Below are positions 2,184 to 50,002 of a stretch of DNA of 50,002 bases, in pieces. Origin of the DNA: Shigella phage phiL; the sequence record PP134913, one strand, 5' to 3'. The notes under the pieces were generated by a model. That model was not told the DNA's origin and searched no databases. It saw only the letters and a list, made by a program, of their open reading frames with translations. Each line of letters opens with the position of its first letter. The first letter of the stretch is position 1. The position numbers were made by a program, and so were the translations under genes.

Positions 2184-2592
2184 TTGTCTATACCTCGTTG
2201 TCTACGGGCGTAACTTGCCGCCCCGAAAAACATGTTACAGCAACCTGGCTAGGCGCGTCAATGTCTATAGCTGCATTTTTTATTTTTGTAACCAGTGCAA
2301 CCGATGCAACCGACTTTTTATATAAAAGTACACACATCCATTTCGACGCGTGGAATAGTATGTTTTTTATACTATGCACCATGAAATATATGCCACCCTC
2401 CAAAAATGCGGTTGCACCTATTACGCCGATTACATGCCAATATATAATATAATAAATAAATAAATATATATTATCTATCTTATTATTATATATAGATATT
2501 TTAGTATAGTTAGGCTCATCCCTTCGAGGCCATTTTGTAACACCCATGATAGTATACAACTATTACGACAATTACAACGACAATATAGACGG

Positions 2593-2610
2593 ATAGCACT
2601 TTTTGCTAAA
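2593..2610 (+). promoter_or_regulatory. motif copy in divergent control region
   Basis: ATAGCACTTTTTGCTAAA. Confidence 0.4.
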
Positions 2611-2796
2611 AATGGAGATGGCTACCAGGCGAGCCGGGTAACACTAAATCCTCCCTCTCACAATCATTGCATTCTCATCAACAAATCAACCAACTGTTGC
2701 ACACCATGCAATAATCACGTTTCATCATTCGAGATCAATCGGGATCGCAATTATTCCACATATTCCAGTATTGATGGAATAATGAGCAATTATTGG

Positions 2797-2824: not shown

Positions 2825-3580
2825 ATGTTGGCAGGGTATGATTCATCACATCAACCAATCAGTATGGGATTTGCAATGAAACTAATTTGGTCACTATTCG
2901 ACGGTTCCGGCCTTGCTGGTCATGAACTGGCTAAGCAAGGTCATAAGGTGATGTGCTTCAACTTTGACGGGGCCGATCACGGAGATTATGCAAAGTACAA
3001 TGCCCGGGTAGAGCATCCGAATATTGAGTATGTGAACGTCTTCATTGATGATAAGTTCGAACGTGATGCGATCGCTGGTGTGTATGGCAAGCCGGATTTA
3101 ATCATGGCCTTTCCTCCATGCACTGACCTAGCTGTTAGTGGCGCTCGTCACTTTGCAAGTAAGCGTGAGCGCGATCCGTTATTCCAGGAGAAGGCTGTTG
3201 CAACCGCACGGATTGCTGCGAATATTGGCGACGCCCTGGGCGTGACCTACATCATTGAGAATCCGGTTAGCGTTCTGTCATCTGCCTGGAGAAAACCAGA
3301 TCACTCATTCAATCCCTGGGAGTATGGCGGCTATCTTCCCGAGAATGACTCACACCCCTGGTTCCCGATGTATATTGCGCCGCGCGATGCTTACCCGAAA
3401 AAGACGTGTCTTTGGACCTCGGACGATTTTGTCATGCCGGAGAGAAAGCCAGTAAGCCTGCCTGACGGGTACTCTGCGCAGCAAAACAAGCTGGGCGGCA
3501 AGTCGGCAAAGACAAAGCTGATACGATCCTTGTCGCCGCGTGGATTTTTCAAAGCGATCGCAAATAGCACTTTTTGTTAA
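2825..3580 (+). CDS. compact DNA cytosine-C5 methyltransferase-like protein (251 aa)
   Basis: Ordered motifs LFDGSGLAG (motif I-like), FPPCTDLAVSG (PC catalytic motif), IIENP (ENV-like); start codon uncertain. Confidence 0.5.
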   Translation: MLAGYDSSHQPISMGFAMKLIWSLFDGSGLAGHELAKQGHKVMCFNFDGADHGDYAKYNARVEHPNIEYVNVFIDDKFERDAIAGVYGKPDLIMAFPPCTDLAVSGARHFASKRERDPLFQEKAVATARIAANIGDALGVTYIIENPVSVLSSAWRKPDHSFNPWEYGGYLPENDSHPWFPMYIAPRDAYPKKTCLWTSDDFVMPERKPVSLPDGYSAQQNKLGGKSAKTKLIRSLSPRGFFKAIANSTFC

Positions 3581-3607
3581 AACTCGATCGGTGTGATTTG
3601 GCATAAT
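3563..3607 (+). promoter_or_regulatory. conserved promoter-like element
   Basis: AATAGCACTTTTTGTTAAA ... CATAAT TACCTCATCGAAACGAG. Confidence 0.5.
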
Positions 3608-3645: not shown

Positions 3646-3981
3646 ATGAAATACGAAAATCGCGGTAACGAAATCATCAAAATCGAAAACGGCGTTGAGT
3701 ACATCATGGTAGCTTGCAAGGTTAACGGCATGGATTCCTTCGTATGGGAAGAAATCAAAACTGAAGACAAAGCTGCTAAATTCCTGACCTGTGTTAACCA
3801 GCCGGACGCGGAACGTGACACCTTCACCCGTTACGGTAAATATGAAATCGTTCGCGAGACTTCATGCTTCTGGTGGGTTAAGCCTAACAGCCAGTACAAA
3901 TTCCCGCGCAAAATAAGCAAGCGCACCATGCGTGAAGCTGGCTTCAAGAAAGCGTATGCCGCTGAGTTCGATATTGATTAA
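3646..3981 (+). CDS. hypothetical protein (111 aa)
   Basis: RBS CAGGAG upstream; promoter element 3563..3607. Confidence 0.5.
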   Translation: MKYENRGNEIIKIENGVEYIMVACKVNGMDSFVWEEIKTEDKAAKFLTCVNQPDAERDTFTRYGKYEIVRETSCFWWVKPNSQYKFPRKISKRTMREAGFKKAYAAEFDID

Positions 3982-11755: not shown

Positions 11756-11996
11756 CGATCGTATCTGCTTTAAGTTCCTCTACGTCTTTCTGGATAATTG
11801 AAGGCCAATTCTCGATATGTTCATTTTTTATCTCATCGAAAGACATATCAAGAGAACTAGTGAAATCCCACAGTTCGCAACCAATAACATCCTTAGTCAA
11901 TCCGTTTCGCTCCATAATTTCGCAGCACGTAGCTCGATAAAGTAGCCATAAACCTTGATCAGTTAACTTAACAGGAATCATTTTCTCGTTCATCAT
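11745..11996 (-). CDS. hypothetical protein (83 aa)
   Basis: ATGA overlap with Dam gene stop. Confidence 0.5.
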   Translation of the reverse strand: MMNEKMIPVKLTDQGLWLLYRATCCEIMERNGLTKDVIGCELWDFTSSLDMSFDEIKNEHIENWPSIIQKDVEELKADTIVQH

Positions 11997-12706
11997 ACTT
12001 TCCTTACTTTTGCGCGCTTGTTTTTAACCGAAGGGCAAATGCTTGTGATTGGGATATAGTGAGTCTGTTGAACCTCACCCTCTTTCAGTTCGCGCATAAT
12101 GAAAATTACCGAACCTTTGTTATTGCCGTCAACCGCCTTTCCTGTTTCGCCGGATATGAACGCCAGACGACCTGAACGTGCGTACTCGTTCCCGTCGATA
12201 TCCTCAGTCAAATCCGCTTCAATCCAGATAATCTCAGCCGCGTGCTGTCGTGCCTCAGTAAACCACGCTGTAGAATTATCGGCAGGCAACAGAATATCAA
12301 TCTGGTTGTTGTGCTCCATTTGCTCGATCGCCTTCTTGACGAATATATCAGGTCGACTGTAAGGAGGATTTAACCATACATGCTTATTTTTACCCCACCA
12401 ACGTTTTAAGCAGTTTGTTTCCTGAGAATAGAACTTCTCGCAAACTTTATTTTCTTTACTTGCCGCAGCGTCGAGATCATATTTTCCATAGCGCCCCTCA
12501 AGGTATGCAATAACCTCTCGTGGAGTTGACCATAAATCACGAACTGCGTCAGGGGTATTTGTTCCCTTATATCGACGACCTGAAATCTCTTTGCAGGTTG
12601 GCGTTTTTAGCGCCTGATAATAACCGCCTGATGCTATTGCTTCGCGAGTGAATGAGCAACCAGTATCTGCAAAGTCGATGGTTTCAATATCATTGAAGTC
12701 TTTCAT
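11993..12706 (-). CDS. dam: DNA N6-adenine methyltransferase (phage Dam-type)
   Basis: NPPY catalytic motif (WLNPPYSRPD); size and position typical of T1-like Dam. Confidence 0.75.
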   Translation of the reverse strand: MKDFNDIETIDFADTGCSFTREAIASGGYYQALKTPTCKEISGRRYKGTNTPDAVRDLWSTPREVIAYLEGRYGKYDLDAAASKENKVCEKFYSQETNCLKRWWGKNKHVWLNPPYSRPDIFVKKAIEQMEHNNQIDILLPADNSTAWFTEARQHAAEIIWIEADLTEDIDGNEYARSGRLAFISGETGKAVDGNNKGSVIFIMRELKEGEVQQTHYIPITSICPSVKNKRAKVRKV

Positions 12707-15797: not shown

Positions 15798-15812
15798 TTT
15801 GGAGATCTGGAA

Positions 15813-16748
15813 GTGAACGAAGAATTTATGATGTTTCAGAAAGAGGACGTATTGCCGTATATGAAGGGGTTATGGCGTGAGGCGTTCCAGTCCGTATGCG
15901 GATTACCTAACGAGGTTTTCAACAAGAAGCATCAACCTTGCCCTAACTGCGGCGGCAAAGACCGTTTTCGCTGGACTGATAATCTGAATACTCCTGGCGA
16001 CGGCGGCGCGATCTGCAACTCCTGCGGTAACGACTCCGGGATCGGTTGGTTGATGAAGTTAACTGGTATGCCGTATAGCGATTGCATAAACATCCTGGGA
16101 AGATTTCTCGGAAAAGTCCCTCAGGAATACATCGTCAAGGCAAACAAGAAAGCACGCAGGACTCCGGTGTCTGGTGTCAATGTGATGATGGCAGATCATG
16201 AAGCAGTGATGAAAGTAATGGAGCGCACAGAGAAGCGCGTAAACACACCTCTAAGCATGTTTGAATCTCTACCAACTGAATCATTCGACGTTGGCGTAAA
16301 ACGTCGCGATGATGGCAGGGAGGGCGTATTTCACACTATCCCGTGTCAACTTGTACACGAGGACGGTCTTGATGACGAGTTTTGCAATATTTTGATTATT
16401 GATGAAGAAGGAAGGGAATCGTTTTACGCTAAGAAATATACGAGTTGTTCGGTTGCCGTGACTGGTAAAACAGAAAAAGCGATCTACTTATGCCTTAATT
16501 GGATTGATGCTCAGCATATTGCATTTCACACAAAGCAAGAGGTATGGGCCTGCTTCACTCCTGAGAATCTGGAAATGGTTGCATACAGATATAAAGGGGA
16601 TCGAGAAGTAAGGGTTGCGTGCGAACCTTCAGACAAGGAGACTTTATACATGGCAGACGACCGACAATTAAAAATAATCATCCCAAATCCTGGAGGATAC
16701 CGCTCAGGGATGCAAGCCAAGTTATTCTCAGCGAGTGACCTACTCTAA
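15813..16748 (+). CDS. primase-like protein with zinc-binding motif
   Basis: CPNCGG...CNSCG zinc ribbon near N-terminus; follows helicase region. Confidence 0.5.
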   Translation: MNEEFMMFQKEDVLPYMKGLWREAFQSVCGLPNEVFNKKHQPCPNCGGKDRFRWTDNLNTPGDGGAICNSCGNDSGIGWLMKLTGMPYSDCINILGRFLGKVPQEYIVKANKKARRTPVSGVNVMMADHEAVMKVMERTEKRVNTPLSMFESLPTESFDVGVKRRDDGREGVFHTIPCQLVHEDGLDDEFCNILIIDEEGRESFYAKKYTSCSVAVTGKTEKAIYLCLNWIDAQHIAFHTKQEVWACFTPENLEMVAYRYKGDREVRVACEPSDKETLYMADDRQLKIIIPNPGGYRSGMQAKLFSASDLL

Positions 16749-49515: not shown

Positions 49516-49684
49516 CGCAAGTGATTTCATTTGATGTGATTGGTAGCAATACGTTTCCAACCATCACGAAAGTAGTAACCTGGTTTCCGGTTTCATGGCA
49601 TCTCTCTTTTACCTCTCCGCAGCCGGACACTACCATGATAGCCAGGGCGACCGCCGCCATCATGCAAATCAGAATGCGCATCAT
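49511..49684 (-). CDS. small lipoprotein (57 aa)
   Basis: Signal peptide MMRILICMMAAVALAIMVVSGC with lipobox; GGGAG RBS. Confidence 0.5.
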   Translation of the reverse strand: MMRILICMMAAVALAIMVVSGCGEVKERCHETGNQVTTFVMVGNVLLPITSNEITCE

Positions 49685-50002
49685 TCGAACGCTCCCGCAC
49701 ACAGTAGTAACATGATTACGATCCCAACAATGGCATGACCCATGCAGAAGAACCAGACGGCAGACCATAATGCAATCGTGTTGAAGTTCATTTCAGTACC
49801 TCGATCTTGTTGTCGCCGATTGAGTTTTCTACTACCGATTGCGGGTCATCGCCAGGAACGCGCATGTAGAAATTACTCACCGCCGTGAAGTTCCATTGAC
49901 CGCGCCACTTGAAATAGACTCCGTGTTTTGCGCCCATTGCGTAGTGAGTGGATTTTGCCGGGATCATGTGCCCGTTAACGCGGGTTAGTTGAGTTAGGTT
50001 GC
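49672..50002. repeat. Wrap-around overlap, copy 2 (genome unit length 49,671 bp)
   Basis: Matches 1..331; A at 49798, 49834, 49875 where copy 1 has C. Confidence 0.9.
49788..50002 (-). CDS. partial second copy of 117..344 ORF (runs off window end)
   Basis: Overlap duplicate; carries the three C-to-A differences. Confidence 0.4.
   Translation of the reverse strand, partial: NLTQLTRVNGHMIPAKSTHYAMGAKHGVYFKWRGQWNFTAVSNFYMRVPGDDPQSVVENSIGDNKIEVLK

Follow-up and report, generated by a model that had tools for sequence, protein, structure and literature searches.

Phage K42, a KarlJaspers strain, encodes the one experimentally characterised relative of the enzyme analysed here. Mutants of K42 which escaped the retron Ec86 all carried lesions in the 711-bp dcm gene, and expression of K42 Dcm was found toxic only in the presence of Ec86 (10.1101/2023.08.16.553469). 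As determined by LC-MS, K42 Dcm raised the amount of 5-methylcytosine (5mC) on Ec86 msDNA, and the MG1655 host with the empty vector showed low msDNA 5mC only (10.1101/2023.08.16.553469). For the C82A/E128A/K175A/K176A mutant of K42 Dcm the raised 5mC was lost and no retron toxicity was observed; K175 and K176 were named substrate-binding residues after superposition on DNMT3A (10.1101/2023.08.16.553469). A change of the CCTGG motif of the msDNA abolished Ec86 defence. The CCWGG specificity of K42 Dcm was assumed from the host Dcm, with the bulk 5mC and the msDNA CCTGG mutation as support (10.1101/2023.08.16.553469). Among 35 Ec86-sensitive phages from three families, 34 were stated to encode Dcm (10.1101/2023.08.16.553469). 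A journal version of this study followed (Wang et al., Cell Rep 2024;43:114857), as listed in reference 25 of PMC12640716. When the literature was searched for methylomes determined directly in phages carrying this enzyme, the retron Ec86 work was the only result.

The window, i.e., the whole analysed stretch of 50,002 nucleotides of Shigella phage phiL (record PP134913), shared ~91% nucleotide identity with its closest relative, Shigella phage SH6 (megablast, region). Judged by its sequence, it is a T1-like phage of the genus Tunavirus, family Drexlerviridae. Bases 1-300 recur at 49672-49971, and therefore the window holds one full genome length (about 49.7 kb) and then repeats its beginning. 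The longest open reading frame of the locus, 2825..3580 on the plus strand, had been described in the earlier note as a compact C5-methyltransferase-like gene of 251 aa which carries FDGSGLAG, PPC and ENP in the order and spacing of C5-methyltransferase motifs. This frame is indeed present in the window, and the three motifs were found in the given order at ORF residues 25-32, 97-99 and 145-147. The length of 251 aa applied to the open reading frame only, since the gene itself was assigned a later start:

2825..2875, plus strand: 5' extension of the longest open reading frame, probably an untranslated leader; relatives have in-frame stops or no ATG here
2876..3580, plus strand: gene of the probable Dcm-like DNA cytosine-C5 methyltransferase, 234 aa plus stop (corrected coordinates)

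Sequence comparison places the true start of the methyltransferase almost certainly at ATG 2876, which is Met18 of the longest open reading frame and the methionine of an MKLI sequence, because relatives carry stops or no ATG upstream, have a Shine-Dalgarno sequence in front of the MKLI methionine and are annotated with 705 bp. In SH6, BIFF and Sfin-1 in-frame stops were found upstream, and the MKLI methionine is the first ATG after the last of these stops; for LeonhardEuler, no ATG was found in the upstream stretch examined. In all four, the MKLI methionine is preceded at a distance of 6-9 nt by a Shine-Dalgarno sequence. The genes of SH6, Eco_BIFF and Sfin-1, annotated as "DNA methyltransferase", and that of LeonhardEuler all measure 705 bp, as in the window. 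A weak Shine-Dalgarno sequence, GGGA at about 2865-2868, serves ATG 2876, and homologs aligned only from ORF residue 18 onward. The additional upstream methionine of the window at 2825 arose because ATGGG replaces the AGGAG found at the same place in LeonhardEuler; a start at 2825 was rejected, as this extra in-frame ATG is absent from the relatives. For annotation purposes, the start at 2876 and the product name Dcm-like C5 cytosine methyltransferase should be used.

The C-terminus had been called uncertain, since it is encoded by a copy of a repeated motif. The repeat copy does encode the last six codons and the stop; the uncertainty itself was rejected, because the 95%-identical LeonhardEuler ortholog ends with the same ...STFC and the conservation of the family extends to N232, the codon of which is the first one inside the repeat copy.

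Two relatives were of special value for the comparison. The LeonhardEuler (Bas13) gene bas13_0055, annotated as "Dcm-like C5 cytosine methyltransferase", encodes a protein of equal length which differs from the window protein by point substitutions only; like the gene of the window, it is the first gene of a rightward early cluster. The KarlJaspers (Bas06, MZ501090) gene bas06_0055, 711 bp in length and also annotated as Dcm-like, showed 56% identity over 229 aa (E=5e-88) in a collinear alignment. When counted from Met 2876, C82, E128, K175 and K176 carry the same numbers in the KarlJaspers and the window protein, and E128 corresponds to E128 of K42 Dcm, a residue which was mapped there on DNMT3A. 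With 236 aa for K42/KarlJaspers Dcm versus 234 aa here, both proteins belong to the same family and share its architecture. Both are early gene products of Drexlerviridae and co-occur with a Dam gene, although KarlJaspers belongs to Tempevirinae/Hanrivervirus and the phage of the window to Tunavirinae/Tunavirus.

The small size is not special to these phages. Using the PHROG profiles, the protein matched phrog_757 ("DNA methyltransferase") with E=1.2e-84, with residues 13-248 of the open reading frame on profile positions 9-217 of 247. Homologs were found in 1521 phage records, including phages of Escherichia, Klebsiella, Salmonella, Campylobacter and Vibrio, and a total of 4921 protein clusters (90% identity) matched at E<=0.001. 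Two family searches listed 240 homologs with lengths of 158-259 aa (median 233), and therefore the compact size is the norm of the family; with 234 aa the window protein also falls within the range of about 226-250 aa expected for the single-domain members. The names found in GenBank included "DNA methyltransferase", "putative site specific DNA methylase", "DNA cytosine methyltransferase" and, for the BASEL phages, "Dcm-like C5 cytosine methyltransferase". The compact architecture is thus the norm of a very large annotated phage family and no peculiarity of this phage. The gene is an ordinary, already annotated and already known member of a widespread phage family with a characterised member; for the window it represents a routine component of a T1-like phage.

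The earlier note had made the assignment dependent on a significant match to a C5-methyltransferase profile, and here the outcome was divided. In the Pfam search, the window protein scored 11.8 bits for PF00145, below the gathering cutoff of 22, whereas the match to phrog_757 was significant. Three relatives with 62-64% identity passed PF00145 with 24.7-28.5 bits, over profile positions 4-94 only, and just 4 of 56 diverse family members reached E<=0.01. The NCBIfam search with the window protein gave no match. Searching the PDB sequences with the window protein retrieved no methyltransferase, the sole match being a spurious one to TrwG (E=1.1), and the family profile found no PDB sequence even at E<=10. 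The sub-threshold PF00145 score was nevertheless overridden because of the PHROG, structural and orthology evidence. In this respect the compact C5-methyltransferase-like enzyme proposed before, alongside Dam, was supported by the full-length phrog_757 match, the conserved cysteine and glutamate, the 56% identity to a phage enzyme reported to raise 5mC on retron msDNA, and the confirmed Dam gene.

Profile-profile comparisons (hhalign) aligned motifs I-IV of the family with DNMT3A (E=1e-4). With E. coli K-12 Dcm only 30 columns around motif IV were aligned, at E=0.078 and a probability of 0.7%. Comparison of the family profile with M.HhaI and with a 14-sequence profile of the M.HhaI family returned motif IV only, or nothing; the latter profile was narrow, as the M.HhaI homolog search gave only relatives with at least 71% identity. 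Orthology with the host Dcm was rejected, as the alignment with E. coli Dcm was not significant, and on the basis of these sequence comparisons "Dcm-like" is a functional nickname which does not denote orthology with the host Dcm. In local alignments of the C-terminal half with DNMT3A and M.HhaI, one of four segments reached z=3.2, with a score below that of the best shuffle and with the canonical motifs unplaced, and C-terminal fragments of nine family members gave no PF00145 match in Pfam. Within the protein, the following features were assigned:

2897..2911, plus strand: motif I, F8-D-G10-S-G12 (FxGxG, predicted SAM-binding loop), aligned by hhalign with SLFDGIATG of DNMT3A
3113..3121, plus strand: motif IV, P80-P81-C82 with the putative catalytic cysteine, aligned by hhalign with the PC motif of DNMT3A
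3257..3265, plus strand: motif VI, E128-N129-P130 (ENV-type glutamate), invariant in 56 sequences
3398..3403, plus strand: K175-K176 in front of strand beta7 (TCLWT), at the putative motif VIII position; K175 invariant
3416..3493, plus strand: variable loop of 26 residues (residues 181-206), GYSxQ type, with lower pLDDT of 73-84
3494..3544, plus strand: C-terminal block GGKS...IRSLSPRG (residues 207-223); G207, R217, S218 and R222 invariant

In the family alignment G10, S11 and G12 of motif I were invariant, and P80 and C82 of motif IV were invariant across 56 sequences. Motif IV also aligned with the PC motif of E. coli Dcm and M.HhaI, and the alignment with phrog_363, which holds canonical methyltransferases, ran through the region of motif VI. 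Counted from Met18, F8 and C82 are separated by 74 and C82 and E128 by 46 residues, close to the spacings of 71 and 46 counted on the verified DNMT3A sequence, in agreement with the spacing claimed before. At the putative motif VIII position, placed there by the published superposition only, the sequence K175-K176-T-C-L-W was found, without an Arg, and the pairwise alignment at this place was not significant. None of the catalytic residues varied among 56 homologs, the most distant of which shared 33% identity. Because of this invariance, the hhalign result with DNMT3A and the predicted C5-methyltransferase fold, the resemblance of the motifs is not due to chance. Compared to E. coli Dcm/M.EcoRII and M.HhaI, the window protein differs by PPC-T in place of PC-Q and by ENP in place of ENV.

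For structure prediction, an AlphaFold2 model was built on the 56-sequence alignment (33-85% identity). The model was compact, with a pLDDT of 90.9 and a pTM of 0.89. Motif I is formed together with strand beta1, motif IV with beta4 and motif VI with beta5, and the strand T177-C-L-W-T181 follows K175-K176. Using Foldseek against the PDB, the top 42 matches were all DNMT3A/3B, MET1, DIM2 or DNMT1 (best E=7e-7), and the predicted fold is that of a class I SAM-methyltransferase of the C5 type. Closest in the shape of the model was the catalytic domain of DNMT3A/DNMT3B, with about 15% identity to the window protein. No evolutionary link is claimed. In DNMT3 enzymes motif IX is retained, motifs VIII and X are roughly 90 residues apart (26 here), and the active form is an oligomer with regulatory domains. 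Fold, family membership, conserved catalytic residues and gene boundaries were established in this analysis.

Strand beta7 and GGKS are just 26 residues apart, with no target recognition domain (TRD) or motif IX in between, so that the little room for a TRD seen before was borne out. The stretch from motif VIII to motif X spans about 135 residues in M.HhaI and about 90 in DNMT3A (counted on verified sequences). The protein is small because the 26-residue loop replaces the TRD plus motif IX: E. coli Dcm comprises 472 aa and M.HhaI 327 aa, compared to 234 aa here without both elements. At the C-terminal end, two short terminal helices follow the invariant block G207-G-K-S...I-R217-S-L-S-P-R-G, in which GGKS (207-210) and RS (217-218) are the candidates for the equivalent of motif X.

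Taken as a whole, the data are best explained by a compact, single-domain, SAM-dependent Dcm-like C5-methyltransferase, of a family present in Drexlerviridae and many other phages, with standard chemistry that methylates the DNA of its own phage, a reading to which we assign a probability of about 0.82. The window protein is a real, unusually small and probably active DNA cytosine-C5 methyltransferase. Its activity, target sequence and biological role are inferred. Judged from the chemistry of the family and the conserved residues, the FDGSG loop would bind SAM and the target cytosine would flip out of the duplex. The Cys82 thiolate would then attack C6, with Glu128 of the ENP motif holding N3/N4, and after transfer of the methyl group to C5 beta-elimination would free the enzyme. 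With the 26-residue loop in place of the TRD and motif IX, the enzyme would be little more than a catalytic domain.

That the protein is a decayed or inactive remnant of a methyltransferase, or binds DNA or SAM in a non-catalytic role, might be suspected from a sequence which lacks TRD and motif IX and stays below the Pfam cutoff, as well as from the BASEL phages, the methyltransferase genes of which did not correlate with restriction phenotypes. We consider it highly improbable, since all catalytic residues are invariant in more than 50 sequences with identities as low as 33%, the AlphaFold2 model is compact and of high confidence, and the four-residue catalytic mutant of the K42 ortholog kills both 5mC signal and retron toxicity. 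Moreover, that more than 1500 phage genomes have kept the family points to selection for function.

The motif X region bears on the chemistry of the transferred group. CmoX (PMC12783734, PDB 8yf3) possesses a full-size TRD, an SPPC motif and Arg350, which binds the carboxylate of Cx-SAM, and is usually accompanied by a phage CmoA and a ligase (PMC12783734). The enzyme of the window might likewise transfer a carboxymethyl group from host Cx-SAM, forming 5-carboxymethylcytosine instead of or beside 5mC. E. coli makes Cx-SAM (PMC12783734). Of the CmoX hallmarks, SPPC and an Arg at the position of M.HhaI N304, the SPPC motif is absent from the window protein, which reads A-F-P-P-C; its family has FPPC, and a basic residue, K209 or R217, is found at either motif X candidate. 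In a distant branch of the family the consensus of motif IV is F-P-E-C. However, the K42 ortholog yielded 5mC, DNMT3A uses SAM in spite of its GRS at this position, and the mapping of motif X is tentative here. No CmoA or amide ligase was annotated in the regions inspected of LeonhardEuler and KarlJaspers. Overall, carboxymethyl transfer appears extremely improbable.

The compact methyltransferase would most likely be expressed early and methylate the phage's own DNA at a short site. With the K42 ortholog as model, CCWGG is the best guess for this target. A second methyltransferase, an NPPY Dam, had been reported before, and this assignment held:

11993..12706, minus strand: Dam-type N6-adenine DNA methyltransferase (NPPY), PF05869 with E=6.4e-69

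In Pfam this open reading frame reached 231 bits for PF05869, with a cutoff of 28. Together with Dam (GATC), the enzyme may protect frequent short sites which cannot be purged from the genome, with 6-bp palindromes being avoided instead. The genome tolerates 85 CCWGG and 263 GATC sites, but many 6-bp palindromes are close to missing from it. AAGCTT was observed 0 times (16.5 expected), GGATCC 0 times (9.5 expected) and GAATTC once (11.4 expected), and RCCGGY was found once with 27 expected. These counts are circumstantial and fit an avoidance of long sites combined with methylation of short, frequent ones. In the BASEL study, the restriction resistance of Drexlerviridae was not linked in any simple way to their methyltransferase genes. 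The phage probably carries both 6mA from Dam and 5mC, which would affect restriction sensitivity, methylation-aware sequencing and cloning. As a side effect, enzymes of this kind can trigger the retron Ec86/Eco1, and the window enzyme may expose its phage to this retron, which is native to E. coli BL21.

The variable loop raises the question of the target once more. Among the 142 homologs that were parsable by pattern (of 240), 77 carried a GYSxQ-like and 58 an NPGW loop, so that two discrete types share one slot of 26 residues. K42/KarlJaspers Dcm has the NPGW type and the window protein the GYSxQ type. The enzyme could therefore be an active C5-methyltransferase with a target other than CCWGG, in which the loop is the specificity element and the GYSxQ type reads a different, possibly shorter or relaxed site. 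The sole characterised enzyme, K42 Dcm, is of the NPGW type, and its motif was inferred and not mapped. E. coli K-12 is dcm+, and since the msDNA 5mC of MG1655 was low all the same, the host Dcm is apparently no substitute for the phage enzyme. On the other hand, the encoding of Dcm by 34 of the 35 Ec86-sensitive phages would be most easily explained if most variants, of whichever loop type, share CCTGG, and a contact of the loop with DNA was deduced only from its position and its lower pLDDT. We regard a deviating target as possible, if on balance unlikely, and retain CCWGG. A bolder version, in which the TRD-less family forms a minimal system of swappable specificity, the site of the GYSxQ type differs from CCWGG and, as a longer shot, Cx-SAM is used via the basic residue of motif X, appears rather doubtful. 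The wider question behind these considerations is how a site is read by an enzyme of 234 aa without TRD, with loop types that possibly differ in specificity.

Finally, the repeated motif at the end of the gene was inspected together with its upstream copy:

2592..2614, plus strand: upstream copy of the same motif, reference copy of repeat family D5
3562..3584, plus strand: copy of the repeated promoter-associated motif AATAGCACTTTTTGTTAAAA (repeat families D5/D6; inverted pairs I3, I5, I6 and I15)

The repeat family of AATAGCACTTTTTGTTAAAA comprises more than 20 copies on both strands, which are typically located 50-80 nt upstream of genes and oriented in their direction of transcription. The copy at 3562..3584, which covers the last six codons of the methyltransferase plus its stop, precedes the next gene at 3646..3981 and most likely serves that gene. 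The copy at 2592..2614 lies about 260 nt before the start of the methyltransferase gene and, from its position only, is a candidate promoter element for it.

E. coli K-12 is dcm+. With an empty vector in MG1655, msDNA 5mC was only low, and Ec86 activation was seen only upon expression of the enzyme of phage K42, a KarlJaspers strain (10.1101/2023.08.16.553469). The compact phage enzyme therefore apparently behaves unlike the host Dcm, from which it seems to differ in substrate preference, activity level or exact site. Might a difference in substrate preference lie in the use of hairpin or single-stranded DNA? In an escaper of K42 from retron Ec86 the dcm mutation was given as "dC-to-dA 9 bp upstream" (10.1101/2023.08.16.553469). 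KarlJaspers 15799-15815 (minus strand) holds the SD sequence GAGGT, located 8-12 nt upstream of the dcm start, and the position of the escaper mutation corresponds to a coding-strand G inside this sequence. This is consistent with a ribosome-binding-site knock-down of dcm.

A repeat search of the window revealed a 300-nt direct repeat with one copy at each end (1-300 and 49672-49971, 99% identity). The window thus covers a single full genome, ~49.67 kb long, and wraps around as a result of either terminal redundancy or circular assembly. Comparing observed and expected counts, 6-bp palindromes were found to be strongly avoided in window 1-49671, while no avoidance was observed there for GATC (n=263), the site of the phage Dam, or CCWGG (n=85), the best-guess site of the Dcm-like enzyme.

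Observed versus expected site counts, window 1-49671
AAGCTT: 0 versus 16.5
GGATCC: 0 versus 9.5
GAATTC: 1 versus 11.4
GCATGC: 0 versus 8.7
GGCGCC: 0 versus 8.1
GCCGGC: 0 versus 7.8
RCCGGY: 1 versus 27
CTAG: 28 versus 67

The repeat search also identified a motif, ATAGCAC-N5-TTG(T/C)TAAA, recurring across the window on both strands:

2592, 3563, 3975, 5096, 5610, 6115, 15732, 32291, 36055: plus strand, motif copies
672, 1411, 12753, 16804, 42751, 44582, 46157, 46677, 48201, 48929, 49490: minus strand, motif copies

Many small genes in the window are preceded by a copy 50-80 nt upstream, and the copies are always oriented in the direction of transcription. Some extend to ~70 nt, with a TATAGT/CATAAT-like box ~22 nt 3' of TTGTTA. 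The spacing within the repeat does not match a plain sigma-70 -35/-10 pair. The repeat is probably a phage promoter or a regulator-binding element.

An inverted-repeat search of the window detected a self-complementary, extremely AT-rich stretch at 2441-2494 (TATATAATATAATAAATAAATAAATATATATT...), which sits in the divergent region separating the leftward from the rightward early gene clusters; the methyltransferase gene (2876..3580) lies downstream of it. Mosaic differences flank this gene among the close relatives Sfin-1, SH6 and SA30RD. Sfin-1 carries an additional 213-bp gene (483-695) overlapping the methyltransferase start, and SH6 two additional small genes 3' of the methyltransferase gene (1444-1830). 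In SA30RD nothing more than a DNA methylase of 549 bp (800-1348), labelled "partially similar", is annotated; it may be truncated or have a misassigned start.
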